From: Chloroflexota bacterium
GTDB lineage: Bacteria; Chloroflexota; Ktedonobacteria; Ktedonobacterales; JACDGC01
Assembly (NCBI GenBank): GCA_021778805.1
Contig: JAJYBV010000001.1
Coordinates: 12,639 to 76,638, forward strand
DNA: 64,000 bases
Direction of reading: 5' to 3'
Shown in pieces: positions 1,238 to 55,106 of this stretch (positions are counted from its first letter, which is position 1; every line of letters starts with the position of its first letter). The notes beneath the pieces were generated by a model. The model was not told the origin of the DNA. It did not search any database and saw only the letters and a list, made by a program, of their open reading frames with translations. Position numbers and translations under genes: made by a program.

Positions 1238-1390
1238 CAGGGGTACCGCGCGGTGTGTTGTTTATAATATGATATTTTGGGGACACCCCAAACCCCGCGC
1301 AAGGGGCTTCCGCCCCTTACGTATCCCTGGTTTGTGTAGCCGTGAAGTAGTTGGAATAGCCATTGCTGTCCTTATATTCTGAATAGTTAC
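1238..1390. repeat. Repeat locus I: inverted copy of the ~89-bp module-A unit (1238-1328) plus module G ending CTGAATAGTTAC (1337-1390)
   Basis: 1275-1328 is the reverse complement of the gggatacgtaaggggcgg..gccccttgcgcggggtttggggtgtccccaaaa element seen at 2389-2632. The ggaatagcc...agttac part recurs at 17262-17315 and at 36880-36935 (inverted). Confidence 0.85.
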
Positions 1391-1495
1391 AAACGGCGCA
1401 AACAAAAAGTTAATTATAATTGAAGATTACCTTGCCTCTGTGCTATTATTGAAAAGCAAACATGAAACAATAATACAATATTCAGGAGGAAGGTC

Positions 1496-2338
1496 ATGGA
1501 TTTACAATTATTGATTATTTTGGGCTTAGCAGCTTTTATTGTAATTTATTTGCTGTTTTCCGGCTTTCGCGTTATCAATCAATACGAACGCGCTGTTGTA
1601 TTCGTATTAGGGCGTTATGCCGGTGTTCGCGGCCCGGGACTTTTTTATATTATTCCGTTCATCAGCAAAATTCGAGTCGTAGATCTGCGAATTTTATCGT
1701 TGGAAGTGCCTGCGCAAGAGGTCATTACTCGCGATAATGTTACCATTAAAGTAAACGCAGTGCTATATTTTCGGGTAGTGGAACCTAATAAATCGATTAT
1801 TAATATTTTGGACTATCAAAGAGCAACGGTGCAAATTGCGCAAACTACACTGCGCAATGTTTTAGGCCAATCGGAATTAGATGAAATTTTAAGCGAACGC
1901 GAAGTTATTAACGGCCGTCTGCAACAAATCATTGATCAGCATACCGAACCTTGGGGCGTAAAAGTATCGGCCGTTGAATTAAAAGATCTTGAACTGCCCA
2001 TCGGAATGCAGCGCGCTATGGCTAAACAAGCTGAAGCAGAACGCGAAAAACGCGCCAAAATTATTGCCGCCGAAGGAGAGTTTCAGGCTTCGCGGCAATT
2101 AGCTGAAGCAGCAAATGTAATTTCACAGCAGCCGGCAGCTATTCAGCTGCGTTATATGCAAACATTGGTGGAAATTGCTGTTGAGAAAAATTCCACCATC
2201 ATTTTCCCTGTCCCTATCGATTTGCTTTCTTCTCTCAAAGATATTGCTCAGCAATTGCAATCCGGCTCTGCTTCCACCAACCAGCCGCCGCCGGCAGCGC
2301 CGCAAAACCCGCCCAATGCTCCAACTTCGCAGCAATAA
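1496..2338 (+). CDS. SPFH/band-7 (stomatin/HflKC-like, slipin) membrane protein
   Basis: N-terminal TM helix, then the core [33 protein letters not shown] coiled-coil [17 protein letters not shown] and a Pro/Gln-rich tail follow. RBS aggagga at 1484-1490. Confidence 0.85.
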
Positions 2339-2361
2339 TGTTAATGAACTTTAATTATTAA

Positions 2362-2945
2362 AGAGGGACAAGATATACCAGCATAACCGGGGATTCATAA
2401 GGGCGGTAGCCCCTTGCGCGGGGTTTGGGGTGTCCCCAAAAGCTCTTTTTTATAAACAACCACCGCACGGCACACATGGGGATACGTAAGGGGCGGTAGC
2501 CCCTTGCGCGGGGTTTGGGGTGTCCCCAAAAGCTCTTTTTTATAAACAACCACCGCACGGTACACATGGGGATTCATAAGGGCGGTAGCCCCTTGCGCGG
2601 GGGATTGGGGTGTCCCCAAAAGCTCTTTTATTTTAAAATTTCCCCAAAGAAATATTGGTGGCTAGTCAGCAAGGGCGACCGCAAGGGTCGCCCCTACCGG
2701 ATTGCATTGCCTCAGGTGTACCGTGCAGTATTTGTTCAACAACAGGCACTATAAAGCACTCAATGTACTCTGCTCTGTTGATCTTCATCCCGATTAAAAT
2801 ATCAAAGCCCATAATTGTGTGGCTTGTTTCCCCACCTCCACCCATGGGTACCGCGCGGTGGTTGTTCAACAACAGGCACGATGGGGTACTCAATGTACTC
2901 TGCTCTGTTGATCTTCATCCTGATGAAAATATCAAAGACCATCAA
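2362..2945 (+). repeat. Repeat locus II: composite array (left boundary GGGACAAGATATA, 2.7 x 89-90-bp module A, module B hairpin, two ~130-bp right-end units)
   Basis: Module-A units start at 2389, 2478 and 2568. Module B is at 2655-2728. ttgttcaacaacaggcac...actcaatgtactctgctctgttgatcttcatcc.gat.aaaatatcaaag.ccat occurs at 2732-2812 and 2862-2942. Confidence 0.9.
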
Positions 2946-2946
2946 C

Positions 2947-2979
2947 AAAAAAACAGGGGGGAATGTACATTCCCCCCTG
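2947..2979 (-). terminator. Rho-independent terminator of the DoxX gene
   Basis: caggggggaat-gtac-attcccccctg (2954-2979), with an A7 run on the plus strand (2947-2953), which is a U-tract in minus sense. Confidence 0.8.
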
Positions 2980-3020
2980 CGCTGATAGAAATCGCTTTCT
3001 TTTAAACGTTAGTTAAATCG

Positions 3021-3641
3021 TTAAGCGGCTTTAGCGTGTTCCTCTTTTTTCGCCAAAGAACCTGTCCACGGAACACCTAAAAGCGGCAGCAAATAGCGGT
3101 CTCCACCCCAATATCCGGCAGTTCTCCAAGCCAGCAGAAGGAAGAGCGCCAAGAAACCAAGTACCGGATTTGTGCTAACTGCGCCGGCCAGCACATAGTT
3201 GAAATTCATCATTAAGCCAAAGAATGAAGCGATACCGGTAAGCACACCAAAGATTAAACCTAACCCAACCAATAATTCACCGAAGGTGATTAAGTATGCC
3301 CACAAACCGGCATAAGGAACCACAAAATCTTTTAAGAATGAAGCATACCACCCTTGTACGGTAGGATATGGGCCATTTGCTTTGGCGATTGCGCCTTGGG
3401 CAAATCCCTTAATCGCGGCGCCAACGTTACTGGTCATAATCCAGCTTTTTTCAGGCGATTCCAGCGGCAACGCTGCGCCGGTCAATTTGGCAAATCCGGC
3501 TCCCAGCCATTGATATCCAACATATAAACGCACAATAAGCCATAACCATGCCATTCGTGTATCCGCAAAAAAGAAGCGGGCGATTGGAGCTTCAGGAATT
3601 TCAGAAGCTGCTTTGGGCTGTAATTTAGCGAATATGCTCAT
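3021..3641 (-). CDS. DoxX-family integral membrane protein
   Basis: 206 aa with several hydrophobic helices. The motif LWLIVRLYVGYQWLGAGFAKL is typical of DoxX/DoxD. Confidence 0.55.
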   Translation of the reverse strand: MSIFAKLQPKAASEIPEAPIARFFFADTRMAWLWLIVRLYVGYQWLGAGFAKLTGAALPLESPEKSWIMTSNVGAAIKGFAQGAIAKANGPYPTVQGWYASFLKDFVVPYAGLWAYLITFGELLVGLGLIFGVLTGIASFFGLMMNFNYVLAGAVSTNPVLGFLALFLLLAWRTAGYWGGDRYLLPLLGVPWTGSLAKKEEHAKAA

Positions 3642-3959
3642 AAATCATTTCTCCTCAAGAAAACTGATTGGTAAATTTGCGCCGCTTTGTGTGGCGCCTT
3701 CAGTTTTTCTTGACACTTCAATAATATGATGAAAAACTCAAAAATAAATCTCAAAATACCTCCTATCTCTCACGAATACATCAATGTTTTTTTCTGTTTT
3801 AGTTGGCTGAATCATATTTCCGTCACGATAAACGCTTTTATTTTCTGTTTGCTTTTAAGCCTCTGCCGGTCCGTGGCCGGCAATGAATTTGACGCAATTG
3901 CTCGCCACAAAAAAACGCCGCCGAAATTATCGGCGGCGCTAGAATACAATGAAAAATTG

Positions 3960-6329
3960 TTATTTTATAACATACGTGAAGTCTTGCAGCATCGGCGCAT
4001 TATTCGCGTAAAGTTGTTTAGCTTTTTCAATTCCGGCAGGGATAATGGTAACAGAATAATCAACGATGGCGCCGCTTTGCCGCTGAATTGTAAAGGTATA
4101 GGGCTGCGCTTTGCCGCCGCTGATTTTATAGGCGTTAGGCGTATACCAATCTAACTCTATATTTGCTGTGCAAAAAGCAGGAACAACTACCATCCCGCCA
4201 AACATCGCCCGGCCTTGCTCATCGCTGGTCAGATTATCCGGCGCGCCGATATCATCGATGTGTGTATTATCCGAGCCATTTAATCGCGGAAATGAGCTGC
4301 TGCCTTGCCCCGGATTAAATATACCCGATTGGCACGTTGGCGCTTCCGTTGGCTGGCAAGGATTATTTACCGGCGCATATGGTATAAGCTGCCCCGTTTT
4401 AGGATCTTTTACCGGTGGCGGCAATTTTCCTCCCGGACCGGGCGTAGCTAAATAACATAAAGGCGGACTGATTTCTTGATCGAAGCCAGAGCCATACGTT
4501 AAATAAGACTGCGGCGGCGCATACACCCGTATATAATCCCTGTATGTTAATAAACCATACGTTGGGCCGGTCGGCTGATAATCAATAGTTATCATATAAT
4601 TATGAAACGCGCCGCCGCTGTTATCTAATGTTATCGTTTCGTGTACAGTTACATGCGCATATAAGCTGCCTTTTTCTACACCGATGTTTGCTTGCACCAT
4701 ATATGTTGAGTCTTGAGTGGAACCGCGTATCATTGCCGCCGAAAGCCCATTTTGTGAAAGCAGCGATTCAACTTGGGGATTCTCAATATAAATTTCTAAA
4801 TCCTTTGAAATAAGGTCGGCGCGCAAACTTTTCATAATCAATATCAATTTGGAAACCGAAGCGGTACGCGCTTTTTCTTCAAGAGCATTGGCCAAAGTTG
4901 CAGTAAATCTTTTGCGCAAAGATGTTCCCGTTATGTTTGAAGAACAGGCGTTTTGTTGGTTTACCCCGGCGCCAAGCTGGTAATAGTGCAATTCATTTTC
5001 CAAATTGGTGTCGGTAATCGTAACGTTATAACAAGGAATATAAATTGGACCTAATACGGCGGGATTCAGCAGATGTTCTATCATCAGCGGCGAAAACGCT
5101 ATAGCGCCGCCGGTTATTTGCTGTCCGCTTTCTTTTTGAAAAGTTCCAATGGCCAGCTGCGAGGTTGTCGCAAAATCACCCGACAAATTAGAGTCGCGCA
5201 ATCCCCAGTTTGCAAATGGCCACCAAGATTTATATGCTGCCGGAACTTGCTGCCCCATAACCGGATTATGCAGATTATAATCCAAGTATTCGACCGCAAT
5301 TAATGAAATTGGACCGGCGCGGCCGCCATTCATTGAAAGCACTCCCCAATCTCCGGTAAATCCGCCGCCGGGGCGCAGTTCGGTGCGATCCATTGTTTGA
5401 ATTAAATACGTGCGCGGTGTGCCTACGCCAAGCAGCCAACCTGCAAGCGGCACATAGGGATTATATTTTTGAATATCACTTATTGCTGTTGGAATAAGTT
5501 GCGTATATTTTTTTATTGAAGCTAGCTGTTTTGCGTTTACAGGCAATTGATCCAAATTCACAAAACTTAGCTGCGTCTGAATTGTTTGCAGAGCTGCTAA
5601 GGTATCGCTTAATCCCGTTTGCAAATCTGCAAAACTTTTATCGGTTAAAAGCGGCGGACCTTGTGTGGCAAACGGTGATGTTTGAAACGTCGTGGTAAAA
5701 TCTCTGCCAACCGCAACGAGTTTATCACATAATTGCGTGGCCGTAATTGCAATACTTGCCAGCTGCCCGGTGGCCGTAATTTTTGTGGAATACGGCGTTA
5801 ATCCTGCTAACCCAATTACTCCGCTTTTTTGTGATATCGCCGAATAGATATTTGAAAAATCGGTTTGCGCAGTATCACAACTTTTTTGCACCGCATTCAG
5901 CGTCGCCGGTGAAAAAATCGTCTGCAATTTGCCAACTGTGCCGCCGCCGGATGAACTGCCGGCGCTTGAGCCATTTACATTACCTAAAATCGTTTTGATA
6001 GATTCCAGCTGAGCGACTCCATCTGCTCCCCAATTCTTCAGCGACTCATATTGCACTAAAGCGGTAGATCCAACCGCTAAAAGCGGAGCAATTGCGGCAA
6101 ACAATAAAATGCCGGCCATAATCATACGCCAATGTTTTACGCGACTAAGTATACGGCCATATTTTGTTTCGGTAAAACGCCGCGCAAATTTCTCAAAATA
6201 TAGGGTATAAAACCGTACTGATTTCTGAAATGTTTCGATCTTTTCGTAAGGTTCATGAATATTTCCCTCGGGCGGGGCTTCCTGTTCAACAGACATAATA
6301 ATTGCTCCATAAAGTCCAATATATACCAA
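3960..6329 (-). CDS. DUF4012-like large extracytoplasmic protein with an N-terminal membrane anchor
   Basis: 789 aa. A TM segment (MIMAGILLFAAIAPLLAV) is followed by the TELRPGGGFTGDWGVLSMNGGR motif characteristic of DUF4012. The start could instead be the M at 6296. Confidence 0.5.
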   Translation of the reverse strand: MVYIGLYGAIIMSVEQEAPPEGNIHEPYEKIETFQKSVRFYTLYFEKFARRFTETKYGRILSRVKHWRMIMAGILLFAAIAPLLAVGSTALVQYESLKNWGADGVAQLESIKTILGNVNGSSAGSSSGGGTVGKLQTIFSPATLNAVQKSCDTAQTDFSNIYSAISQKSGVIGLAGLTPYSTKITATGQLASIAITATQLCDKLVAVGRDFTTTFQTSPFATQGPPLLTDKSFADLQTGLSDTLAALQTIQTQLSFVNLDQLPVNAKQLASIKKYTQLIPTAISDIQKYNPYVPLAGWLLGVGTPRTYLIQTMDRTELRPGGGFTGDWGVLSMNGGRAGPISLIAVEYLDYNLHNPVMGQQVPAAYKSWWPFANWGLRDSNLSGDFATTSQLAIGTFQKESGQQITGGAIAFSPLMIEHLLNPAVLGPIYIPCYNVTITDTNLENELHYYQLGAGVNQQNACSSNITGTSLRKRFTATLANALEEKARTASVSKLILIMKSLRADLISKDLEIYIENPQVESLLSQNGLSAAMIRGSTQDSTYMVQANIGVEKGSLYAHVTVHETITLDNSGGAFHNYMITIDYQPTGPTYGLLTYRDYIRVYAPPQSYLTYGSGFDQEISPPLCYLATPGPGGKLPPPVKDPKTGQLIPYAPVNNPCQPTEAPTCQSGIFNPGQGSSSFPRLNGSDNTHIDDIGAPDNLTSDEQGRAMFGGMVVVPAFCTANIELDWYTPNAYKISGGKAQPYTFTIQRQSGAIVDYSVTIIPAGIEKAKQLYANNAPMLQDFTYVIK

Positions 6330-6445
6330 TATAAATGACGTATAAACTAAGCCATAGTAGACGATGTGTGACTATTTTCGCGGCAATACACGACGAAGCG
6401 CCAAACATGGCGCCCAAAATGACAATATGACTTTGCCGCGCAAAG

Positions 6446-9400
6446 CTATATTCCTTGAATAATAAATCCCGACCAATAAATAGGATGCGCGAATGGAGCC
6501 GCATTGGCCGGTGTCATATCCGATAAATTCATATCCGGGTCTCGCGATAAATCATCGGCATAGGTTCGCATCATTTCATCCAGGGTAAGGCTGCGCAGCC
6601 AACGTTGAGCGTTGCGCAGCGCCTGCGCCGGCCGGTGGCCGTCGTTCAGATAAAATTGCGCAAAGCGGCGCATCAGCAGCAGCGTCGCTAAATCACTGGC
6701 TGGCCATAAACTGCCTGCTACCGCGGCAGCCCCGCCTACTTGCAGTGTGGCGGCTAAACTAACGCTTTCGTCGATAGAGCTTGCGTTTGAAAGCGCCGAT
6801 TGTCCGGCAGAGAGCACCGCCAGCCGAACGCCAAGAAACGCGGCGTCGCCATGAAGGACATCTTTGGCCACAATTTTTTCCGCGCCGGATAATTGAATGA
6901 AGGATTGCGCAGGCCGTTCGGGGAAAAAGCCGCAGGGGCAGGCAAAGTGGGCGTATGCGCGTTCTTTTAACGCTTTTAACGCGGCAGATCTGCTAATTCT
7001 GCGACGAATAAGCAATGTATTTGGCTGGCCTACAGCCGAAACAACCTGAGCTATTGCTTCTGCCTCGTGTTCAGACCACATTAGGTTAATTTCCGCAGGC
7101 TGAGGATTGCCGAATATTGCAGCCCCATTGCGCAAATTCATCATGGCGCGCGTTTCAGAGCGCAGCAGCTGTTGCGCTGAAGAGATATAAGAGACCTCAA
7201 CATAGTCTAAAAATCGCGGATTTTCAAAGATTTTATCGCTTTCAACGCCATCGTCATCTAATTGCGGTATATGAGCGCGCACCGGCGCGGCGTGCAACGG
7301 CGCGGCGGCTATTGCCCCCAGCGAGCAGATGACTGCTTTGGCAGTCCCACTGCTGCGCAAGTGCTCTGCCAGTGGTGTTATTAAATCTTTACCCAACACG
7401 CCAAGAATTTTCTCTAACGCATTTGGCGCCGGCAAAGCGCCAAGTTCAGTTTGCACGTGCATCTGCGGGTGTTGCGAAACTTCAGCGATACCCGCAAGTT
7501 CCGCTTCGGTAACATTCTCGGCCCAGAAAGCTTTCAGCGCGCCGGCAGTTTCTTTGGCAGATATGCACAGCGCAAATGAACCGCTTTCGGTAGAAACGAT
7601 GTACACCATTGGCCGATCCGGCTTCACCGCTTTGGTAATGTTTTGGAACGTGATAGTTTGAAGCAGAAAATCCGGATCTTGCTTTTGAATTTGCGTAATT
7701 GCCGCAAGCAGCGCATCTTGCGCTGACCGTAGCGCCGCGCTGAATTCATCGGATCTTTGCGACGCATACACCATAGTTACAGATCCGGTATGAAACGGCA
7801 GTTCTGCAGAAACGGGTTTGGTGTTTGCCGCAATATCTTTTTGCAGCGCGGAATAAGCATTCCAAAGCTGCGCCTGCGCGTTATGAAATTTTATGCGCAA
7901 TTCGGTGGAAACTTTTTGCAAAGCCGATTCATCGCGTTCCAATGCTTCGTTGGTAATGCGAATATGGCCTTTTTCCAGCCTGATAGCGGCGTCGCGCGGG
8001 CGGTTCATCCGCGCCAAGCAATAGGCGTCTAGGGCAACCAATTCTGCGTGGTCGCGCACACGCTGCCCCGGTTTGCTGGTACCAAGCTGCATAGCATAAA
8101 GCGTATCCGAAGCGGCAAGCGCGCCGGTTAAAACGGAATGAGCTTCTTCCCATTTGCCTTGTTCGAACAGCAGCGAACCCAAGTTGCGCGCCGTGCGGCG
8201 ATGCTCCAGGGGAAAAGCGTCGCGGCGGCGAATACTCAGGGATTCGCGATACGCAGAAACGGCGCGTTTAATATTATCTTCGCGGCTGCCATATTTTCTT
8301 TCGCGCAGCGCGTTACCCAAATTATTGAGCGTATTAGCCCAATCTACGGGATTTTTATTGAGGGTTTCCAGCGCCAATTCTTGTTCGTAATGTTCAATAG
8401 CGCGTTCAATATTTTCCGCGCGCGCGCCTTCAATGCGGTCCATATACGCCACACCAAGGTTATGGTGGGCCAGCGCCCAGCGGTCACCGTCTTTTTGGCG
8501 TGTCAGCGCGGTAAGGGCAGTTTCAAACGAAGCGATGGAATGCTCCAAGTTTTTATTGCGGTCGCCCGATGTTCGCTGCCCCCAAATATTGCCGAGAAAA
8601 ATATAATCATTAGCCCATTCCGCCGGAGAAGTTTTGGCGTCACGGACAGTCAGCGCCAATTCATAGGCGGCAATGCCGGCGTCTGCTGCGTTTTCATTGC
8701 CCAACAAAAATTGCTGATAATACGCCGCGCCTAATGTCTCTTGCGCAGCCGCCCATTCTTTTGCAGAATGCTGCCGGGTGCGCACACGCAGCGCAGCGGT
8801 AAGCGCTTCAATAGATTGTTCTAAATCTGCCTTGCGGTCATCACTTTCGCGATACAGATATGCTTGCCCAAGATAATATTGAGCGGCGCCCCAATCGTAG
8901 GGATATTCAGCAAATGTAAATATTTGCAGCGCGGCAAACAACGATTCTATGGCGTGTTCCAGCAATTGCTGGCCGTCTGGGGCGTTTCGCAGCCGCACAG
9001 CCGTCATACCAATTTCGCTTTGCAGCGCAGCCCACAACTCATCCAACTGGTCGCGCGATGCTAAATTCAGCGCTTCTTCTAAATAGCGCAATTTAAGTCT
9101 TGGCTGCGCCGCAGCTTCCGGAGATTCGATATCTTGCAGCAGTTCATCTAAATCGGGGGTAAACAGTTCCTCCGGTTCGTCTTTAAACGCCTTATCTATC
9201 CCTTCGCGCTGAGCAATTTGCAGGGCGCGCTGATAACGCTCCAAATATTTTGCGGCGGAAGGCCCAACTTGTTCGTACACGCGATTAATATTTGACGTAA
9301 GCAGCATCATAGCGGTATTGGAAAGCAGTTCCGGATGTTTTTTCAGCGCCTCGCGGGAATCGGATACTTTAGGCGCATTAATAAATTCCTCCAGCGCTAA

Positions 9401-9670
9401 AGCTACCGCTTCCGGTTCAATAATAATGGTAGGGGGATCTTCTTTTTTAGTGCTTTCCGGCCGAACACCGGATTTCACAACGGTATTATCGGCAGAGAAA
9501 TGATTGATTGGCTCCCTTACCGCTTTTAATGGAGCTGTTTGGGTAATTTCATTTTCATCTCCTTGCTCATCATCCCAGTATTGTTCTGGTGAAGGCAGCA
9601 TATGCGAATCTTCAGGGAGATTTTGCCCGTTGGAATTTTTATCTTTTTTGCGGCGAAAACGGCGAAACAT
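6446..9670 (-). CDS. TPR-repeat / CHAT-domain protein; catalytic dyad apparently substituted
   Basis: About six roughly 42-aa TPR-like repeats (W..A...LG.AY...). The C-terminal CHAT-like region runs AHFACPCGFF ... LAVLSAGQSAL ... GAAAVAGSLWPASD ... HPIYWSGFIIQG. I chose the start MFRRFRRKK at 9670; the ORF is open to 9739. Confidence 0.75.
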   Translation of the reverse strand: MFRRFRRKKDKNSNGQNLPEDSHMLPSPEQYWDDEQGDENEITQTAPLKAVREPINHFSADNTVVKSGVRPESTKKEDPPTIIIEPEAVALALEEFINAPKVSDSREALKKHPELLSNTAMMLLTSNINRVYEQVGPSAAKYLERYQRALQIAQREGIDKAFKDEPEELFTPDLDELLQDIESPEAAAQPRLKLRYLEEALNLASRDQLDELWAALQSEIGMTAVRLRNAPDGQQLLEHAIESLFAALQIFTFAEYPYDWGAAQYYLGQAYLYRESDDRKADLEQSIEALTAALRVRTRQHSAKEWAAAQETLGAAYYQQFLLGNENAADAGIAAYELALTVRDAKTSPAEWANDYIFLGNIWGQRTSGDRNKNLEHSIASFETALTALTRQKDGDRWALAHHNLGVAYMDRIEGARAENIERAIEHYEQELALETLNKNPVDWANTLNNLGNALRERKYGSREDNIKRAVSAYRESLSIRRRDAFPLEHRRTARNLGSLLFEQGKWEEAHSVLTGALAASDTLYAMQLGTSKPGQRVRDHAELVALDAYCLARMNRPRDAAIRLEKGHIRITNEALERDESALQKVSTELRIKFHNAQAQLWNAYSALQKDIAANTKPVSAELPFHTGSVTMVYASQRSDEFSAALRSAQDALLAAITQIQKQDPDFLLQTITFQNITKAVKPDRPMVYIVSTESGSFALCISAKETAGALKAFWAENVTEAELAGIAEVSQHPQMHVQTELGALPAPNALEKILGVLGKDLITPLAEHLRSSGTAKAVICSLGAIAAAPLHAAPVRAHIPQLDDDGVESDKIFENPRFLDYVEVSYISSAQQLLRSETRAMMNLRNGAAIFGNPQPAEINLMWSEHEAEAIAQVVSAVGQPNTLLIRRRISRSAALKALKERAYAHFACPCGFFPERPAQSFIQLSGAEKIVAKDVLHGDAAFLGVRLAVLSAGQSALSNASSIDESVSLAATLQVGGAAAVAGSLWPASDLATLLLMRRFAQFYLNDGHRPAQALRNAQRWLRSLTLDEMMRTYADDLSRDPDMNLSDMTPANAAPFAHPIYWSGFIIQGI

Positions 9671-10016
9671 ATGGCAGCAGATGTCCTTTTTTTTACCAAA
9701 CAGCGCAATGTTTAAAATGGCTATATGCGTTATACGCATACAGGCAATAGGTGTTTACACCAAACCTCACATCCGGTACAGCCGGCGGCGCAGCGGCAAA
9801 TAAGCCAAAGAATGCTTGAAATAATCTGCGGTTATGCGGCGTCAGCGCCAATTTGCAGGGCGTTTCAGCGGCGTTGGATTGTTTTAAGCAATCATTTCAA
9901 TCTTCAATTGCATACCTTGAAGCGTTAACCGGCGAAAAATAACACTATTGCAAGCCCATTGTACCATGAAATAGCGGAATCATGACGAAAATGGTAACTG
10001 TGGTTTACCGCTTGTA

Positions 10017-10709
10017 TCAGCGCCGATTTTCACCGCCGGATTCACTGGGAAACCCCAATCCGGCTTCGCGCATGCTTAAACATCTGCCCTGCCCAATGAC
10101 GATGTGATCGAGCAAAGCAATATCCAGCAGTTTGGCCGCGTTATATATTTGTTCGGTAATGCGTTTATCTTCTTGCGACGGTGTTGGGTCTCCGCTGGGG
10201 TGATTATGCGTAATAATAATAGATGGGCAATTGCGGGTAACTGCCGGACGCAGCGCTTCAGCAACACGCACCAGCGAGGCGTTAACCGTTCCCTGATAGA
10301 TTGTTTGGATATGCGCCACCATATTTTTGGTGTCCAGCAGCAACACGCGCAATTGTTCTTGCGGCAACGCGGCCATTTCAATGCCAATCAGCCGCATAAC
10401 ATCTTCGGGGCCTTTAATTTGGGGTCTGTCGCCGGGCATCGTTACCGCCAGCCTTCTGCCTATCTCTAACGCGGCTTTAATTTGCGCGGTTTTAGCCTCT
10501 GCCATGCCATGGTATGAACACAAATCAGCAAAATCGGCTCGTAACAGGCCGGTGAGTCCGCCATACACTTGTAACAGCTGCTGCGCCAGTTCAACAGCGT
10601 TGCAATTTTTTACGCCAACCCGCAAGATAACCGCCAGCAATTCTGCCGTTTGCAATGTTGGAGCGCCGAAGCGCGCCAAACGTTCCCGCGGGCGATCATC
10701 CGCGGGCAT
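10017..10709 (-). CDS. radC: RadC-family JAB/MPN-domain protein
   Basis: Starts MPADDRPRERLARFGAPTLQTAELLAVILRVG and contains the HNHPSGDPTPSQED (JAMM) motif. The ORF track extends 72 codons further upstream (to 10925), which is probably not translated. Confidence 0.85.
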   Translation of the reverse strand: MPADDRPRERLARFGAPTLQTAELLAVILRVGVKNCNAVELAQQLLQVYGGLTGLLRADFADLCSYHGMAEAKTAQIKAALEIGRRLAVTMPGDRPQIKGPEDVMRLIGIEMAALPQEQLRVLLLDTKNMVAHIQTIYQGTVNASLVRVAEALRPAVTRNCPSIIITHNHPSGDPTPSQEDKRITEQIYNAAKLLDIALLDHIVIGQGRCLSMREAGLGFPSESGGENRR

Positions 10710-11008
10710 ATCATGAATACTGTGCCGAAACGGTGAAATGGTGTAATTTTGATAGGTATTTAGCTGTTCCAAAGTATTATTACTTCCTTTTTTGCGGCGG
10801 TTTACTATGTGCGCTTTGAACCCGCAATCTATGCAGAAACGGCGCCATTGGCAGGGATATTGCGAGAATATTGCTGGGATATTGTGAATATCCAAAAGTA
10901 CCGGTAAAAAATGTGAAAAATTCACTTTTTTCTGTGACTATATGCTTCCAATCGCCTAAAATTCCGGTAAAACACTTTGAAATAGAAAATATGTTCATTT
11001 ATAGATTA

Positions 11009-11037
11009 TTGTAAATTCATCATTTTTATGATATAAT
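11009..11037 (+). promoter_or_regulatory. Near-consensus sigma70-type promoter (TTGTAA-N17-TATAAT) upstream of the receiver gene
   Basis: ttgtaa at 11009-11014, a 17-nt spacer and tataat at 11032-11037, preceded by tga. It lies about 65 nt upstream of the ATG at 11103. Confidence 0.55.
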
Positions 11038-11102
11038 CGTAGTTGTGCGTAAAGTTAGTTATGGTAAAAACTAAACTGTAGTTACCTACAAGGAGGTTCT
11101 AT

Positions 11103-11546
11103 ATGTCTCGCATGCCAGCGTCATTGCAAACATCCACAAAACCAATTTCCATTGTCATCCTTGATGATGATAAGGCGTTATTGGATTCGTTAACTTACTG
11201 CGTATCGGAAATAGGATATAAGATTGTGCCTTTTGATGAAAACGATATGCTATTCGAGTTTTTTGAACGACACAACACTGCCGATGTCTTAATTTTAGAT
11301 ATCGTTGGCGATCCTTCGCAAAACGGATTGAATGTTTTAGAGGAACTTGAAGAAAAATATGGGGAAAATATTCCCAGAATCCTCATTTCATCCGGTTTGC
11401 CTTACAAAAATTACAGCGGGCATCCCGCATTAAAGAAAGCGCCATTCGTGCATTTCTTGCAAAAACCTTATAATATCGAGCAATTTGTAAACGCTATCGA
11501 TATACTAACACTTCAAAAAAAATCGCATAAACGATCATTTTATTAA
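11103..11546 (+). CDS. Stand-alone response-regulator receiver (REC) protein
   Basis: 147 aa. The acidic pocket is IVILDDD and the phospho-acceptor context is VLILDI. ILISSG and QKPY supply the conserved S/T and K. RBS aaggagg at 11090-11096. Confidence 0.75.
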   Translation: MSRMPASLQTSTKPISIVILDDDKALLDSLTYCVSEIGYKIVPFDENDMLFEFFERHNTADVLILDIVGDPSQNGLNVLEELEEKYGENIPRILISSGLPYKNYSGHPALKKAPFVHFLQKPYNIEQFVNAIDILTLQKKSHKRSFY

Positions 11547-11562
11547 TGCCTTAAACAAACGT

Positions 11563-11596
11563 ATTCCCGCTGCGGCGCGCGGCGGGAATTTTTTTT
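11563..11596 (+). terminator. Rho-independent terminator after the receiver gene
   Basis: The stem attcccgc (11563-11570) pairs with gcgggaat (11582-11589) and is followed by a T-run to 11596. Confidence 0.75.
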
Positions 11597-11711
11597 GCTC
11601 TACACCATACATTACCTGCCGGAAAAATCGGTTTTTTTTATTGGCGCAGATATGTTCGGCATAGAAAACGCAGCACAAACTGCATAGTTCTAATGGTATT
11701 TCCTATTTAAA

Positions 11712-16830: not shown

Positions 16831-17009
16831 GGACGATTTATGTACATAAACAAACTGCGCCTCGACAGGCAACTCCATGTCATTAAGCTGATAACAGCGC
16901 CTGTGGTCACTGGCATATATTCCGCATTTAGTATATGGCCCAGCGGATATGTTTGTCAAATTTCTGTACAGAAGGTTGCTATTCAGAGGATATTTACAAG
17001 AGCCGCAAA

Positions 17010-17315: not shown

Positions 17316-17329
17316 GACAGAAGTTTATA

Positions 17330-41176: not shown

Positions 41177-41182
41177 GAGATA

Positions 41183-42402: not shown

Positions 42403-42458
42403 AATTTCCGAATAGCGCCCGGAACATTTATTAAATATACATTTAGGAGACAACACTC

Positions 42459-42815: not shown

Positions 42816-42845
42816 TTCCGTGAAAAACAGAACAGGAGTGGCACA

Positions 42846-43994: not shown

Positions 43995-43999
43995 CATAT

Positions 44000-44821
44000 A
44001 TGCCTATTGATTTTCCGCAGCCAATGAAACCGTCACAAAATGATGACGCCGGCTACAATGCGGTCCACAAACGAGTGTTAGAGCTTACCGGCATCGATCT
44101 CGATTCTTATAAGCGTCCGCAGATGCTGCGTCGTTTAGACGCGATTATATCTCGCAGACAGTTAAACGGATTGGCGCAGCTGGCAAGTGAACTAAAACCA
44201 GGCTCTGAATTATTGCAAGAGTTTATGGAACGGTTTACCATTAACGTTTCGGAATGTTTTCGAGATAAGCCGCGCTTTGAAATTTTAGCAAATCAAATTA
44301 TTCCCGAAGCGTTGAAACACACACCACGGGTGCGCGTGTGGAGCGCCGGATGCTCTTATGGCGCCGAGCCATATTCCATCTCGCTTATTTTTCAAGAATT
44401 GCATACAGCTGGCTGTACCATCACCGCAACAGATATCGATCCTAAAATTTTGGCGGCGGCGCGCGCCGGAGAAAGCTTTACTTCCAATGATTTGAAAAAT
44501 CTGCCGGCAAATCTTGCTTCAAAATATTTTACCCATTTGCCAAACGGCAATTATCGTGTGAGCGATTCTTTAAAACCTGCAATCACGTTTAAGCAGCATA
44601 ATCTGCTTTCTCCACCACCAGATTCAAATTTCGATATAGTGGTTTGCAGAAATGTGACGATTTATTTTACCGAAGAGGCAAAAGATCGCGTTACACAATA
44701 TTTGGTCAACGCTTTAAAACCCGGTGGCGTTTTGTTTATTGGAGAAACCGAAACAATTCACAGACCAAACAGATTTGGGTTATCACTGCGATCGACATCA
44801 TTCTATGAACGGGCAGCCTAA
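44000..44821 (+). CDS. cheR: Chemotaxis protein methyltransferase CheR
   Basis: Starts MPIDFPQ and contains TGIDLDSYKRPQMLRRL, FFRD-like ECFRD, VWSAGCSYGAEPYS and IVVCRNVTIYF. RBS aaaggag. The ORF track start at 43859 overlaps cheB. Confidence 0.9.
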   Translation: MPIDFPQPMKPSQNDDAGYNAVHKRVLELTGIDLDSYKRPQMLRRLDAIISRRQLNGLAQLASELKPGSELLQEFMERFTINVSECFRDKPRFEILANQIIPEALKHTPRVRVWSAGCSYGAEPYSISLIFQELHTAGCTITATDIDPKILAAARAGESFTSNDLKNLPANLASKYFTHLPNGNYRVSDSLKPAITFKQHNLLSPPPDSNFDIVVCRNVTIYFTEEAKDRVTQYLVNALKPGGVLFIGETETIHRPNRFGLSLRSTSFYERAA

Positions 44822-44879
44822 TATTAAAAAGGAGATGGCGCGGAATTCTATGCGGCGCAACCGCGCGCAGCCGCGCTGA

Positions 44880-45362
44880 GTGAACATGAAAGTTGAATTT
44901 ATTAATCCGTTTGTAAAAGCGGCCATCGACGTTTTGCGCTCGGAAATTAAGTCCGATGTGGAACGCGGAAAGCTTCGCTTGGAAACATCCTCGGCGGCGT
45001 CGCACGATGTTTCGGTTATGATCGGCTTAACCGGAGACGCTCAAGGGGTGGTTTTATATGGCATGCAGGTAGAAACCGCTGTTCAAATTGTCAGCCGGAT
45101 GCTCGACCAAGAATGTGACGAGCTAGACGCCATGGCGCAAAGCGGTATTGCTGAAATGGGCAATGTTATTACCGGGTTAGCCAGTCGTGGTTTATCTGAA
45201 GCGGGGTTTCAGTGCAATATTACACCGCCAACACTCATTGTTGGAAAAAATACCCAAATCGGCACCCTTGATATACCGCGAATTGCGCTTCCTTTAAAAA
45301 CCGAGTGCGGCGAAATTGAAATTAATCTTGCTTTGCGTGAATTGAAGTCGCAGGCGGCATAA
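44880..45362 (+). CDS. cheX: CheX/CheC-like chemotaxis phosphatase
   Basis: Contains FINPFVKAAIDVL, HDVSVMIGLTGDAQGVVLYGM and GIAEMGNVITG. The start is GTG 44880 or ATG 44886. Confidence 0.6.
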   Translation: MNMKVEFINPFVKAAIDVLRSEIKSDVERGKLRLETSSAASHDVSVMIGLTGDAQGVVLYGMQVETAVQIVSRMLDQECDELDAMAQSGIAEMGNVITGLASRGLSEAGFQCNITPPTLIVGKNTQIGTLDIPRIALPLKTECGEIEINLALRELKSQAA

Positions 45363-45499: not shown

Positions 45500-47167
45500 C
45501 TATTCGGCTATTGGCCCGCCTAAATGGCCATGGCCGCTTGAATCAACCGGCGTGGGATTTGGATCTTCACCGCTTGTAGATCCGGTAGATGAGCCGACTC
45601 CGCCGCTCGGTGTATTATTTCCCGATGAGCCGACTCCGCCCCCAGGAGTGTTATCTCCCGATGAGCCAACTCCGCCCCCAGGACCGTTTTCCGATCCGGC
45701 GCCATTACCTACTGAAACAGCCGGAGGCAAATCACTCGGTGGCAGCGCAATTGCCCTATCTGTATGCAAAGATGAAATATCTTTCCACACTTCGTGATTA
45801 AGGCTTGGTGTTTGCGCTGTTGCTTCAGCAGTGGTTAACAATGGACGGGTGTCTTCGATGATATTGTGAGGATTGGCTGTAAAAATATTTTCCTCTGCCG
45901 TATGTGATGCGCTGGAAACTATATTTGCTGCGGCAGCTTCCACATGCGGCGCAGAACTTGCCGGAACGGCTTCGGGTTTATCCGCCGGTTGCGGCGCTTG
46001 CGGCTCTTCAGCCGGTACATGCGCGGCAGCTTCCTGATGCGCCGCAACTTCAGCCGTCACCGCGGATCCTGCTCCAATGATCGCTGTTGCCTCTGCGGCG
46101 CGCTGCAAATCAGATGAAGGATTTTCCGCCGCAGTTTTTTCAGCGCCGCCATATACTTGGTCTACAGTTGCGCTGGTAAACAAACCAGATTCCGCAGCGG
46201 TTTCGGGTTTATCCGCTGGTTGCGGCGCTTGCGGCTCTTCAGCCGGTACATGCGCGGCAGCTTCCTGATGCGCATCAACCTCAGCCGTCATCGCGGCTCC
46301 CGCGCCAATCATTGCTGCTGATTCTGCGGCGCGCTGCAAGTCAGATGAAGGATTTTTCGCCGCAGTTTCTTCAGCGCCGCCATATATTTGGTCTACAGTT
46401 GCGCTGGTAAATAAACCAGATTCCGCAGTGACTTCAGGTTTATCCGCTGAATTTTCTGATTCCGGCATGGCGGCCGGCGTATGAAGCACATCTGAATCCT
46501 GAGTTTGCACAGCAGAAACCGAAGCTATATTTTCCATCGTCAAGGGTTCGTCGTCTTCATAAAACACTAATACGCCTTCATCTCCTTGCTCTGGAGTTTC
46601 AATGAAATCGGCCGTATTACTTTCTGCCGCTGCAGTTTCAAGCGCCACTTCATCAGTAGATTCGGTGGGCGCAGGAGTTGATTGTGGTGTCAACTCTGCT
46701 GTGGATTCATTTGCAGGCATATCGGTTGTATGCACCGGCAATTCAATTAAATTGGGATTAACCGCCGAACTATCAAATGCTTCATTAGCCATAGCCGCTG
46801 CAGCTGCAATATCGGCAGCAGTAATCACACCTTGTTCAGCAGGTGGGGGTTCATGCTGCAATGTGTTAATAATTCGCTGCGCAATGGCCTCATTTTTCTC
46901 CAAAACCAGGTTATGCAAATCACCGCTTATAAGTTCATATAAAGCATAAAATGTTGGAATAAAAGTCCAGCTAAACAGAACACTCAGTATGCCATATTCA
47001 AAATTTCCCAGATAAAACTGCTGTAAGCCGAATGTGCCCAGCAAAGGCAGTGACAATATACGCGCGGTAGTTTCATTCTTTTTTTGCCGAACATACCGGC
47101 TATGAAATTCATTTTTTTGGTCGAAATTCAAAGAAAATAGCATAGACTCTATAGAATCTTCTATCAT
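45500..47167 (-). CDS. TM2-domain membrane protein with a long low-complexity, internally repeated C-terminal region
   Basis: The N-terminal part, ILSLPLLGTFGLQQFYLGNFEYGILSVLFSWTFIP, is TM2-like. It is followed by an Ala/Glu/Pro-rich region with two 77-aa repeats and a Gly/Ser-rich 12-aa x3 tail. Confidence 0.65.
   Translation of the reverse strand: MIEDSIESMLFSLNFDQKNEFHSRYVRQKKNETTARILSLPLLGTFGLQQFYLGNFEYGILSVLFSWTFIPTFYALYELISGDLHNLVLEKNEAIAQRIINTLQHEPPPAEQGVITAADIAAAAAMANEAFDSSAVNPNLIELPVHTTDMPANESTAELTPQSTPAPTESTDEVALETAAAESNTADFIETPEQGDEGVLVFYEDDEPLTMENIASVSAVQTQDSDVLHTPAAMPESENSADKPEVTAESGLFTSATVDQIYGGAEETAAKNPSSDLQRAAESAAMIGAGAAMTAEVDAHQEAAAHVPAEEPQAPQPADKPETAAESGLFTSATVDQVYGGAEKTAAENPSSDLQRAAEATAIIGAGSAVTAEVAAHQEAAAHVPAEEPQAPQPADKPEAVPASSAPHVEAAAANIVSSASHTAEENIFTANPHNIIEDTRPLLTTAEATAQTPSLNHEVWKDISSLHTDRAIALPPSDLPPAVSVGNGAGSENGPGGGVGSSGDNTPGGGVGSSGNNTPSGGVGSSTGSTSGEDPNPTPVDSSGHGHLGGPIAE
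45588..45695. repeat. Intragenic 36-bp x3 tandem repeat (encodes GGVGSSG(D/N)NTP(G/S))
   Basis: gatgagccgactc starts at 45588 and 45624, with the variant gatgagccaactc at 45660. Confidence 0.85.
45973..46434. repeat. Intragenic 231-bp x2 tandem repeat (77 aa units)
   Basis: cgggtttatccgc recurs at 45973 and 46204, and a third partial start (caggtttatccgc) is at 46435. The units are roughly 85-90% identical by eye. Confidence 0.9.
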
Positions 47168-48328: not shown

Positions 48329-48340
48329 TCAATAGCAATA

Positions 48341-48434
48341 GTCGCACTACCGGATTGCGTACCGCGCCGGCAAAACCTCAAGGGATTCGTAAGGGGCAGC
48401 AGCCCCTTGCGCGGGGCTTGGGGTGTCCCCAAAA
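48341..48434 (+). repeat. Repeat locus VI: module-B fragment plus module A downstream of the LysM-SLT gene
   Basis: gtcgcactaccggattgcgtaccgcgc (48341-48367), then gggattcgtaaggggcagcagccccttgcgcggggcttggggtgtccccaaaa (48382-48434). Confidence 0.85.
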
Positions 48435-48538
48435 TATCTTTTATTAAAAAAACTCCGCGCGTCTGCAAAAGCAGCATGATAGCAGCAATATGATACAATT
48501 GGGTTGAAAGCATATTACGCAAAGGAGCGATTTTACAT

Positions 48539-52838: not shown

Positions 52839-52849
52839 TGAGAGAAGAT

Positions 52850-53200
52850 ATGACAGAACAAGAACTTGAAACATACAAAAGCAAACTTCAGCAGTTATCA
52901 CAGGAATATCTTGCACAGATACAAGATCTTGAAGATATAAACCGGGAAGAAACAGCAGATTTATTGGAAGAATCCGGTGATTCCGGCGATGAAGCGGCTG
53001 TGCTGTATTCGGAAAATACCTATGCTAGCCAAATTCAAACGCTGCATGAACTGCGGATTTTAGTTGAAGCTGCCTTGCAGCGCATTAACGCCGGCGCGTA
53101 TGGGCAATGTTTGGATTGCGGCCATGCTATCGACTTGCGCCGGCTTGCCGCCATACCGTATGCGCAATATTGTTTGCAGGATCAGGCAAAGCATGAGTAA
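52850..53200 (+). CDS. DksA/TraR-family C4 zinc-finger protein
   Basis: A coiled-coil N-terminus, then CLDCGHAIDLRRLAAIPYAQYCLQDQ (CxxC...C). Confidence 0.7.
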   Translation: MTEQELETYKSKLQQLSQEYLAQIQDLEDINREETADLLEESGDSGDEAAVLYSENTYASQIQTLHELRILVEAALQRINAGAYGQCLDCGHAIDLRRLAAIPYAQYCLQDQAKHE

Positions 53201-53281
53201 ATAGTGAAAGAAACAGCAAAATAACCTTGGCGGTTAATAAAACCGCCTAAATCAACAGATATTGAAGAAAGATGTCTATAT

Positions 53282-54037
53282 ATGAAAAATGCGCCTTTTA
53301 CTTCCGGCAATTCTACTCCCGATCTTTCTGCCGAATGGCAGCGCCGATGGGATGTATTAGTACTCGCCATAGCTATCGCCGTTATTGCCATTGATCAATT
53401 GTCAAAATCTATGATTGTCAACTATTTTCATACATGCGATTCCGGCAGTTATATTCCTGTAATCGGCAATATTCTCACTTTTACTTATGTGTGCAATACC
53501 GGAACTGCTTTCAGCATAGCAGCCGGATCCTCGGTGGTATATTTACTCATCGCAGTGGCAGTTGTTGTTATTGCCTGGTTATATCTTTCTAACCGGCCAA
53601 TCAATAATCCCACGTTAAAAATTACCTTTGGGCTTATTTTTGGCGGCGCCACAGGAAATATTATAGACCGCTATAACAGAGGCAGCGTTGTAGATTTCAT
53701 TCATTTTACGGTTCCTCATTTCGATTTTTATGTTTTTAATTTTGCCGACTCCTGCATTGTAGTTGGAATGGTGATTTTAGCCTATATGCTGCTGGTTTCA
53801 TCCCGCAGCAGCCGCGCGGATACAGCCACAAGCGACCTTATTGTTGACCACGCGGCGGAAACACAAGCGCCTGCGGAAATATCCGTTGAGGCTGCGCAGC
53901 CGCAAAAAAATACGGTTTCGGCCGCCGCAACAACTGCCACAGCCGTAAAATCACCGCAAAAACCCGCCGTATCGCCAATAAAAAAGTCTTCCGGCGCCAA
54001 ATCAGCCGCAAAATCAAAAACCAAACACAGGTCGTAA
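53282..54037 (+). CDS. lspA: Lipoprotein signal peptidase (signal peptidase II) with a C-terminal Ala/Lys-rich tail
   Basis: Contains DQLSK, NTGTAFSI, GGATGNIIDR, VVDFIHF and FNFADSCIVVG. Confidence 0.9.
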   Translation: MKNAPFTSGNSTPDLSAEWQRRWDVLVLAIAIAVIAIDQLSKSMIVNYFHTCDSGSYIPVIGNILTFTYVCNTGTAFSIAAGSSVVYLLIAVAVVVIAWLYLSNRPINNPTLKITFGLIFGGATGNIIDRYNRGSVVDFIHFTVPHFDFYVFNFADSCIVVGMVILAYMLLVSSRSSRADTATSDLIVDHAAETQAPAEISVEAAQPQKNTVSAAATTATAVKSPQKPAVSPIKKSSGAKSAAKSKTKHRS

Positions 54038-54044
54038 ACTAAAT

Positions 54045-55013
54045 ATGTCACCGGATAGCCTTGAACCAAATTTTACCTTTACCGTAATTGCCGACGCTGA
54101 AGACGCTGATACACGCATTGATGTGTTTCTAGCTCAGCACAGCGCCGTACTTTCGCGCGCACAAGCACAGCGTTTTATTCGCGAAGGCGCAGTTTTTGTA
54201 AACGGTAAATCGGTTAAACCTGGTTATACGCTGGATGAAGACGACATTATTCAAGCGGCCCTCAGCGCGCCGGATCTTTCAGCCAAACTGCCCGAACCGG
54301 AACATATACCCATTGATGTTGTTTATGAAGATGAATTTTTATTGATTGTAAATAAACCTGCCGGTATGGTCACCCACGCCGGGCCTGGTCATGAACACGG
54401 CACGTTGGTTAATGCGCTGCTGGGCCGCGGCCATGCCTTGGCAGAAACCGGAGTTTCATTTCGGCCCGGTATAGCGCACCGGCTGGATAAAGATACATCG
54501 GGGCTGCTAATCGTCGCTAAAACCGATGAAACGCTGCTGCTGTTAGGGCAAATGATGCGAGATCATACAATAGTAAAAGAATATATTGCCCTTGTTGCGG
54601 GCTATTTTACCCCAGCTGAAGGTGCAATTGATGCCCCCATTGGCAGAGATCCCCGCTTTCGGCAGCGCATGGCAATAGATTCTCAGCATGGCCGCAGCGC
54701 AATTACCCTTTATAAAACTGTGCAAATTCTGCGGGGAGCGTCGCTCCTTCGGCTAACATTGCAAACAGGGCGTACCCACCAAATTCGTGTGCATTGCGCG
54801 GCGGCAGGGCATCCGATTATCGGAGATTTGGTATATGGGCGGCCATATAAGCCGGAAGCTCCTCGCCAATTTCTGCATGCAGCCCATATAACCTTCCGGC
54901 ACCCCATAACCGGCGCGGAAATACTTGCTGAATGTCCTTTGCCGGATGATTTGGCCAATTATTTACATAATGCAAAAAAATCAAGCATGAACTATAGGCC
55001 TGAGTATACATAA
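54045..55013 (+). CDS. rluD: 23S rRNA pseudouridine synthase, RluA family (RluD-like)
   Basis: An S4 domain (RIDVFLAQH...SRAQAQRFIREGAVFVNG), plus HRLDKDTSGLLIVAKT and GRTHQIRVH. Confidence 0.88.
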   Translation: MSPDSLEPNFTFTVIADAEDADTRIDVFLAQHSAVLSRAQAQRFIREGAVFVNGKSVKPGYTLDEDDIIQAALSAPDLSAKLPEPEHIPIDVVYEDEFLLIVNKPAGMVTHAGPGHEHGTLVNALLGRGHALAETGVSFRPGIAHRLDKDTSGLLIVAKTDETLLLLGQMMRDHTIVKEYIALVAGYFTPAEGAIDAPIGRDPRFRQRMAIDSQHGRSAITLYKTVQILRGASLLRLTLQTGRTHQIRVHCAAAGHPIIGDLVYGRPYKPEAPRQFLHAAHITFRHPITGAEILAECPLPDDLANYLHNAKKSSMNYRPEYT

Positions 55014-55023
55014 CTCATTCAGC

Positions 55024-55106
55024 AGGAGGCGCAAAAAGCAGCATGCCTTCTGACGGGGCGGGGATGTCCCCCGATTCCTTTTATTCCTTGTTTAGGCTGA
55101 GGTCTC
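55024..55106. repeat. T-family element copy 3, downstream of rluD
   Basis: aggaggcgcaaaaagcagcatgccttctgacggggcggggatgtcccccgattccttttattccttgtttaggctgaggtctc. Confidence 0.7.

Follow-up and report, generated by a model that had tools for sequence, protein, structure and literature searches.

Background

In Streptococcus pneumoniae, the RUP, BOX and SPRITE repeats cluster and insert into one another (PMC10969869). REPs (repetitive extragenic palindromic sequences) fall into super-families defined by GTAG or CGTC tags; they are single palindromes of 20-40 bp, and a function as terminators or stabilisers within transcripts has been suggested for them (PMC3733652). [quoted passage not shown] Here we describe a family of hairpin-rich repeats in a 64,000-nucleotide stretch of DNA (the window; positions 12,639 to 76,638 of contig JAJYBV010000001.1, assembly GCA_021778805.1) from an uncultured Ktedonobacteria-like soil bacterium of the Chloroflexota. 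The elements are small, gene-less MITEs that sit within one another between ordinary genes, and the overall picture that we consider probable is one of nested MITEs, mobilised by DDE transposases, that carry a structured core under selection.

RUP is a MITE related to IS630-Spn1, and insertion sequences (IS) of the IS630 superfamily use a TA-centred target and duplicate the TA. Correia and ERIC/IRU elements are co-transcribed with their neighbours and affect termination, processing or stability. Our search of the literature for the core sequence and for MITEs of Ktedonobacter or the Chloroflexi returned nothing relevant.

Repeats in the window

An initial annotation, made from the letters alone, had listed a set of lettered sequence modules, a T family, and a left and a right boundary, spread over at least nine intergenic regions. 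Comparison of the window with itself delimits repeat loci at 1236-1392(-), 2335-2947, 11684-12521, 17007-17315, 36878-37153 and 48341-48461, and together with pattern counts and blastn it places the listed modules where they had been reported, at frequencies far above chance. The core of module A occurs eight times with three mismatches or fewer (0.01 expected), and a covariance model of this core likewise makes eight matches in the window (E<=5.5e-6). There are four exact copies of the left boundary GGGACAAGATATA (0.03 expected), four copies of the right boundary CTGAGTAGTTAC with at most one mismatch (0.06 expected; a fifth, at 17305, is more diverged) and three copies of the end of module E (0 expected). 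Blastn also recovers modules B, C and D, as well as the T-family copies (35141-35225, 36779-36865 and 55021-55107), at 67-100% identity. Modules A, C and B, the last of these on the reverse strand, fold better than shuffled sequences (z -3.9 to -5.4). The tandem amplification of module A that had been reported is an array of three 90-nt units, and the total for the window is eight canonical and three diverged cores.

Eight intergenic regions are clearly occupied, the T copy at 36791 lying in the same spacer as the element at 36880-37153; the proposed ninth, at 20476-20500, has a single 12-mer as its basis and is doubtful. The repeat units are 120-600 bp long, the open reading frames (ORFs) that overlap them are spurious only, and every locus adjoins the 3' end of a gene, as the initial annotation had correctly stated. 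It had also reported no transposase, which is true of the window: none was found among the genes annotated on syntenic contigs or among the ORFs that we scanned directly. Contigs from several samples end inside these repeats. NCBI, ENA and Logan each have independent assemblies of this species in which the same repeats are present, and therefore they are not an artefact of assembly.

What did not hold is the idea of seven separate modules. Their sequences recur, but they are pieces of nested, decaying MITEs rather than independent units: the left boundary and module E belong to one element, module D derives from a transposase, and the T family is a diverged form of module A. On its own, the window is a fairly ordinary MITE junkyard.

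Elements derived from an IS630-family transposon

A gapless alignment of ends and a shared protein C-terminus identify the left boundary and module E as the two ends of one internally deleted IS630-family element. It is present at 2344-2942 (599 bp) and at 11989-12411 (423 bp), and pieces of a degenerate left end lie at 11695 and 17007. The left end reads (A)TGAACTTTCATTATTAAAGAGGGACAAGATATA, and the right end consists of modules D and E, that is, the last ~14-29 codons of a transposase followed by the terminal repeat.

A contig from a strain in another sample (L002) is 99.9% identical to window positions 2478-12006, over 9.5 kb. Directly past the left arm of the C hairpin, a minus-strand gene runs off the end of this contig. 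It sits at the exact junction of the window MITE 11989-12411, in the opposite orientation, and its 3' part only is visible. The last 140 amino acids match Pfam DDE_3 (1.9e-17), and all database relatives carry PF13358, the domain of IS630-type transposases. The three copies of E translate alike, as G(I/V)LNVLCSV(G/D)LHPD against GSLDLLRSVGLHPD* in the L002 transposase, and one D'E' copy aligns to that protein over 29 residues; taken individually, these matches of E and D' to the transposase end (14-29 residues) have tblastn E-values of only 0.05-0.3. Included in the end alignment are the left ends from the window, the E ends as reverse complements, the IS end of L002 and the two ends of L014, a full-length relative (1247 nt, frameshifted, IS630-type); all of them share ATGnnnTTT...T...GGA. 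L014 is flanked by TAA/TAA and the window copies by TGA/TAA or TAA/TCA, flanks that are compatible with a TA-centred target, if imperfectly matched to it.

Elements with GTAAC ends

A second MITE class, GTAACTAYTCAG...CTGARTAGTTAC, with duplications of 7-8 bp, has the right boundary as its terminal inverted repeat. One copy, at 36880-37153, is bounded by a perfect 12-bp inverted repeat. Another, at 16975-17315, is flanked on both sides by ACAGAAG, and in the metagenome-assembled genome (MAG) of a sister species (L135) the flanks meet at a single ACAGAAG; this empty orthologous site is direct evidence for transposition with a 7-8-bp duplication. The duplications of the remaining window copies are degenerate or unclear. 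In metagenome loci L052, L057 and L088, ends of the GTAAC class bound A-core elements of 117-158 bp, and in L122 they enclose 239 bp with other cargo. Also in L122, a pair of GTAAC-like ends spanning 1.7 kb was considered as a full-length element and rejected as a chance pairing, since it encloses TetR and GntR regulators.

A structured core shared by unrelated MITEs

The core of module A is 56 nt long and comprises two GC-rich hairpins linked by (G/C)CGGGG, the second of which closes on a UGU loop. Its consensus is AGCnGGGTTC - [9-bp stem, 4-nt loop] - GCGGGG - NN TGGGG TGT CCCCA NN. Metagenomes were scanned with an exact pattern for the second hairpin, and the core was found in at least 120 stretches or contigs, from soil metagenomes, among the matches listed, so that the repeats are by no means confined to the window. 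It had no match in a collection of 2.9 million viral contigs and was not found in a plasmid collection, and a scan of a genome collection for module A gave at least one locus, in the sister MAG. Across all fetched sequence, the upstream hairpin is present in 101 of 133 distinct pattern matches, usually after a conserved AGC(A/G)GGGTTC.

In the metagenome loci the core lies between short inverted ends of several kinds, of at least four unrelated types. Elements with CAGGGCTATTTAAAAGT ends (the CAGGG class) have perfect or near-perfect duplications of 9-10 bp in L134, L053, L059, L099 and L101. The core is also found between CTAG-flanked TGCAGAAAC ends, between GTAAC-class ends (GTAACTATTCAG...), between the IS630-like ends of the window and, in the sister species, between AGGACTTTCGC ends. 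The usual layout runs from one end through the core, a pyrimidine-rich tract, a third and variable GC hairpin and a purine-rich tract to the other end. All of it can be seen in 36880-37153, and module B is this genome's version of the lineage-specific third hairpin. We propose that all classes carry the same 56-nt core as internal cargo.

Both helices of the core carry compensatory changes that keep the base pairs. A hand-built alignment contains 87 copies, and 92% of its cells pair, compared with 82% for shuffles and 46-58% for controls with slid partners; double-change cells number 140, compared with 48 for shuffles. From this alignment we built a covariance model, which recovered ~40 further copies in the metagenome loci that lie outside the search pattern, among them helix-2 variants with GAGG/CCTC and CGGGGG/CCCCCG and copies with expanded loops. 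Among 94 model-aligned copies, some of them outside the search pattern, 92.5% of cells are paired against 78% in shuffles, and 13 of 16 pairs have changed on both sides (194 cells against 61+/-6, a count reached by 0 of 500 shuffles); the compensations in helix 2 include GAGG/CCTC.

With the same model, the T copies at 55021 and 36779 score as full-length but weak matches. By blastn, the T family also matches variant cores in the metagenome loci L038, L090 and L111, which marks it as a diverged form of module A.

The UGU loop tolerates expansion: insertions of 15-35 nt in the hairpin-2 loop form an extra hairpin in L083 (6971-7042), L060 (727-797), L099 (13216-13265) and L107 (644-724). The core corresponds to no family of Rfam 15: at the gathering score the window gave only the L10 leader, and permissive scans of locus 3 (11695-12521) and nine metagenome loci gave chance-level microRNA and folP matches only.

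We looked at ORFs within 1.5 kb of the core and found no recurrent neighbour in ~120 loci; the ORF clusters beside it are housekeeping families (for instance ABC ATPases, kinases, NuoL, XseA and GDH). One contig of the sister MAG (L001; DAIDIC010000058.1) has, at 1536-2728, a gene for a PDDEXK_2 'PD-(D/E)XK nuclease family transposase' (1705-2631) between two direct A-cores with identical tails. This is a single case, with no second such gene near the core in ~1 Mb of loci, and the gene was dropped as a candidate partner; the arrangement may be coincidental, or else it may form a small mobile unit. ORFs of 392 aa found in three contexts were likewise discarded as a possible transposase, as they are two unrelated proteins of equal length.

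Orientation of the core and a possible role in transcripts

The orientation of the core can be read between co-directional gene pairs only. Between such ORF pairs the core is sense in ratios of 26:5, 20:5 and 11:0 at rising ORF stringency (binomial p 2e-4 to 4e-3). G-U pairs outnumber A-C mismatches in the core by 52:20, and the sense strand of the core is the more stable by ~1 kcal/mol (p 5e-4); in the 70 nt downstream, the two strands do not differ in folding energy. The tail after the core is 81% pyrimidine and ~46% T (126 copies), and in a loose consensus scan of the window hairpin 2 and its tail are terminator-like. Cores that seemed to lie inside long ORFs were set aside as artefacts of crude ORF calling, most of them being at the edges of open frames.

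To our knowledge, DDE transposition does not orient insertions relative to genes. Since gene-oriented insertion is not expected, the 26:5 sense bias argues for selection at the level of the transcript. Selection on base pairing probably maintains the core, and from this and the sense bias outside the window we infer that the core acts in the transcript, a role that would also explain why MITEs carrying it persist. The form of such a role that we favour, if tentatively, is that of a portable 3'-end hairpin serving as a weak terminator or insulator, or as a block to exonucleases. A bolder and rather doubtful proposal is that the core is a functional cassette standing by itself, a portable module of RNA (or single-stranded DNA) with its own recognition partner. 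Such a cassette would have been captured repeatedly by, or would have recruited, unrelated ends (IS630-like, GTAAC, CAGGG, CTAG/TGCAG and AGGACTTTCGC), and its sense orientation would be kept for its effect on the 3' ends of transcripts or its binding of a specific protein.

Canonical intrinsic terminators are present in the window at 11563-11589(+), 2953-2980(-), 3914-3940(-) and 16772-16796(-), with GC-rich stems of 11-12 bp followed by T7 runs; given these strong examples, the organism uses ordinary terminators.

Several points weigh against a selected core carried by DDE-mobilised MITEs. Shared ancestry inflates the covariation counts, as does, for the 94 copies, alignment by the model itself, and the invariant part of helix 2 in the hand-built alignment was fixed by the search pattern. 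The tail is C/U-rich and has no U-tract, and canonical terminators already adjoin two of the clusters (11563-11589 and 2953-2980). Within the window orientation is mixed, with cores sense at 11735, 12031, 48379 and 55021 and antisense at 1273, 36940 and 36779, and the gene calls behind the strand bias are crude longest-ORF calls. As regards the mobile elements, the T-N-A flanks of the IS630-type copies in the window are imperfect, the IS630 partner is visible only as 425 bp (its right end) at the contig end of another strain, and ~1 Mb of fetched loci yielded no autonomous element of the GTAAC, CAGGG or TGCAG class.

Some of these points would also suit a core with no function of its own, the neutral interior of one ancestral MITE whose ends have been swapped repeatedly, with conservation, covariation and bias arising from descent, from transposition that favours hairpins, or from sampling. 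The mixed orientation in the window and the terminators beside two clusters fit such a history; furthermore, many of the copies within one metagenome form near-identical subfamilies, and the shuffle controls leave relatedness in place. We nonetheless consider it unlikely. Several positions of helix 1 have at least four pair types, spread across subfamilies that differ in their ends, and one pair of helix 2 occurs as GC, UA, CG and AU, while the joining GCGGGG and the UGU loop stay fixed as the stems change. The core has been kept in MITEs whose ends are of at least four or five types and whose duplications have three lengths, and, as DDE transposition is not known to follow gene direction, the 26:5 sense bias is unexpected.

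Proposed mobilisation in trans

We propose that the IS630-type and GTAACTAYTCAG-type elements are moved in trans by DDE transposases that would be encoded elsewhere in the genome. The initial annotation had recognised a mosaic, hairpin-rich family of the MITE kind, mobilised in trans, and this much agrees with our results; its analogy with REP sequences and bacterial interspersed mosaic elements (BIMEs), and its suggestion of a Y1 transposase of the RAYT/IS200 type, do not. Its further suggestion, that the modules may serve as transcript-end or RNA-stability elements, gains some support from the strand bias outside the window.

Hairpins of the REP/BIME or REPIN kind, moved as single strands by such a Y1 enzyme encoded elsewhere, would account for repeats that are hairpin-rich, intergenic, abundant, sometimes tandem and mosaic, and for a window that has no transposase; both the right boundary CTGAGTAGTTAC and module F even contain GTAG. 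We know of no case, however, in which Y1 transposition yields terminal inverted repeats or target duplications, and the present elements have inverted ends and 7-10-bp duplications, with one clean empty site. These features therefore indicate DDE transposases and leave the RAYT/REP idea without support. Two of the boundaries, moreover, are ends of the IS630 family, and E is the remnant of a DDE_3 transposase. No GTAG or CGTC tag precedes the core hairpins, where the consensus is instead GGGTTC or GGGGTC; tandem cores are direct rather than alternating; and the ~120 loci offer no recurrent neighbour gene. We regard mobilisation by a Y1 transposase as very improbable.

Nesting, mosaic formation and turnover

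The MITE at 11989-12411 lies inside the C-hairpin loop of an older unit, its right flank being a diverged, inverted C arm. The inverted IS630-family element of L002 occupies the same position in the loop, and a third E end adjoins the C right arm at 2812/2813, which together suggest that this IS prefers the loop of the C hairpin. Before the IS630 ends were aligned, the C hairpin had been taken for two abutting terminal repeats, an interpretation dropped in favour of an insertion target.

These nested insertions, and the re-use of the same spacers by different elements in both species, might suggest that the hairpins are mainly targets (hot-spot loops, as IS1397 uses REPs) and the clusters junkyards that grow wherever a hairpin draws in more IS or MITE insertions, with modules that are not cargo, but we give this little credence, since it covers the nesting in C and not module A, and since the metagenome core, lying between inverted ends and inside a duplicated target, is carried and not hit.

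The mosaic order and orientation of the modules arise through insertion into a hairpin loop and gain or loss of 90-nt units, both of which are seen here, and probably also through inversion or recombination between copies and through decay. Module A has three tandem units in the window and two in L002, 90 nt each, in strains that are 99.9% identical, and L008 has an extra C-D-E unit. At 36880-37153 module B stands in the opposite orientation to A, and an inverted D fragment forms the spacer of the tandem A array. Another MAG of the window's species (L006, 5200-6320, compared with L002 1-5726 and the window from 12034 onward) has the region upstream of the window, on the DUF2079 side, in reverse complement and connected by two tandem A-cores to the right part of locus 3; this junction reflects an inversion between inverted repeats that bear the core, or else a genome that is arranged differently.

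Turnover of the elements is fast. In the sister-species MAG 'Ktedonobacteria bacterium isolate clean5' (GCA_027459525.1), genes are ~84-90% identical in nucleotide sequence and 91-96% in protein sequence, and the genes flanking the repeats are syntenic, yet all four comparable loci differ in content. The spacer that holds the T copy at 35141-35225 in the window has a different A-core MITE there, with AGGACTTTCGC ends; that corresponding to 48341-48461 has unrelated sequence without the core; and one core-bearing insertion is present in the sister species only.

Layout of the individual elements

A remnant of the GTAACTAYTCAG class occupies 1207-1390(-), with a terminal repeat at 1379-1390 and a possible degenerate partner at 1207-1221; it contains an A-core (1273-1330, minus strand), module F and a D-like fragment (1236-1270). 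The 599-bp IS630-derived MITE at 2344-2942(+) has its left end at 2344-2388 and, as its right end, D-E at 2841-2942, which holds the remnant of the transposase C-terminus. Between them lie three A-cores (2387-2443, 2476-2533 and 2566-2623, with a period of 90 nt), a B hairpin (2669-2707), D'E' (2713-2812) and the C right arm (2813-2840).

Locus 3 begins with a unit at 11695-11988(+) made up of a degenerate IS630-like left end, an A-core (11735-11792), a B hairpin (11837-11875) and a pre-C segment, and ending in the left arm of a C hairpin that is interrupted in its loop. In that loop sits the 423-bp IS630-derived MITE, 11989-12411(+), with its left end, an A-core (12031-12088), B, a C hairpin that is intact (~12262-12300), D, and E to 12411. 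The tail of the locus, 12412-12521(+), has a C arm that is inverted and diverged, together with the 3' half of an inverted B; it ends in a GTAAC-class terminal repeat (12510-12521) and is 71% similar to the right part of the element at 36880-37153.

The 341-bp GTAACTAYTCAG-class MITE at 16975-17315(+) has the ends GTTGCTATTCAG and CGAGTAGTTAC, and its ACAGAAG duplication occupies 16968-16974 and 17317-17323. It encloses a piece of an IS630 left end (17007-17035), a C hairpin (17089-17130), an A that is degenerate and inverted (17227-17267), and module F. This MITE is inserted ~16 bp upstream of the -35 box of a near-consensus promoter-like site at 16930-16959(-), TTGACA-18-TATACT; the Rfam L10 leader lies at 16759-16931(-), upstream of rplJ. 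At the same spot upstream of rplJ, a strain of the sister species (L136) has an unrelated 2.1-kb insertion, flanked by TCAAATT, with a 392-aa secreted-looking ORF.

The T copy at 35141-35225(+) has a diverged A-type core followed by a pyrimidine-rich tail, and that at 36779-36865(+) has such a core with a weak full-length match to the A model (11.7 bits, E 0.29). The best-preserved GTAACTAYTCAG-class MITE, 36880-37153(+), is 274 bp long; its 12-bp inverted repeat reads GTAACTACTCAG and CTGAGTAGTTAT, and it contains module F, an A-core (36940-37000) and an inverted B hairpin (37037-37073). A ~160-bp direct duplication (36525-36684 and 37190-37350, 71% identity), which includes the 5' end of a PNPOx-like gene, brackets T36791 and this MITE; the spacer in the sister species has instead an Mrr_cat restriction-endonuclease-like gene. 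At 48341-48461(+) a B fragment is followed by an A-core (48379-48436). The last T copy, 55021-55107(+), resembles the variant cores of L038, L090 and L111, and it is preceded by ATAACTCATTCAG, which resembles a GTAAC-class end.

Other features of the window

The region 38153-45362 holds a complete, ordinary chemotaxis operon (CheW, CheA, CheC, CheD, CheY, CheB, CheR and CheX), syntenic with the sister species. Among named database entries, the isocitrate lyase and CheB have their best matches in Ktedonobacterales, Ktedonobacteraceae, Ktedonosporobacter and Chloroflexota MAGs. The adjacent methyl-accepting chemotaxis genes 58434-60122 and 60322-62766 are paralogues, and the second of them has an in-frame repeat of 132 bp x3 (60485-60880). 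A TM2-domain gene, 45500-47167(-), also has in-frame coding tandem repeats, of 231 bp x2 (45961-46422) and 36 bp x2 (45588-45659).

Significance

Clusters of MITEs are a known phenomenon. The present account is a first description of small mobile repeats in Ktedonobacteria-type Chloroflexota, a barely studied soil group with large genomes. What is new is one covarying, strongly sense-biased core common to MITEs with several unrelated ends and duplication lengths, which is hard to explain by selfish spread alone, and which makes host selection of MITE cargo for transcript-level functions a testable question. If the core were indeed a cassette in its own right, it would represent a widespread, undescribed class of structured RNA in Ktedonobacteria-like soil bacteria that rides on several transposases. 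On a practical level, the repeats break assemblies and mark intergenic sites of fast turnover and structural variants between near-identical strains.

Comparison with known repeat families

The REP, BIME and REPIN sequences of enterobacteria, pseudomonads and cyanobacteria resemble the present repeats in being abundant, GC-rich, extragenic hairpins, mostly downstream of genes and mosaic in arrangement. However, REPs are without inverted ends or duplications and BIMEs alternate, none of which holds for the repeats of the window. The core also differs from a REP in its build, being 56 nt long with two hairpins that are preceded by GGGTTC or GGGGTC and joined by GCGGGG. The palindrome-associated elements derived from IS200/IS605 (PATEs) have subterminal hairpins without inverted ends or duplications, whereas the elements of the window have both.

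The Correia elements of Neisseria and the enterobacterial ERIC/IRU elements are MITEs of 100-160 bp with inverted ends and, for Correia, TA duplications. They have one end type per family, no structured core common across families, and unrelated sequences. The P. gingivalis MITE is similar to the present elements in having an interior tandem array that varies between strains, like the three and two units of 90 nt seen here. Its repeat unit is a 23-nt minisatellite, as opposed to a structured core of 56 nt.

The nearest analogue is the RUP, BOX and SPRITE set of S. pneumoniae, which is likewise short, non-coding, hairpin-forming, intergenic and mutually inserting. The likeness extends to individual families: RUP derives from an IS630-family element, BOX is built of modules (boxA-boxB(n)-boxC) with tandem internal units that vary in number, and SPRITE resembles a terminator. 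The two sets belong to different phyla and have different sequences, and whereas the pneumococcal repeats are three separate families, here one core is found across several end types.

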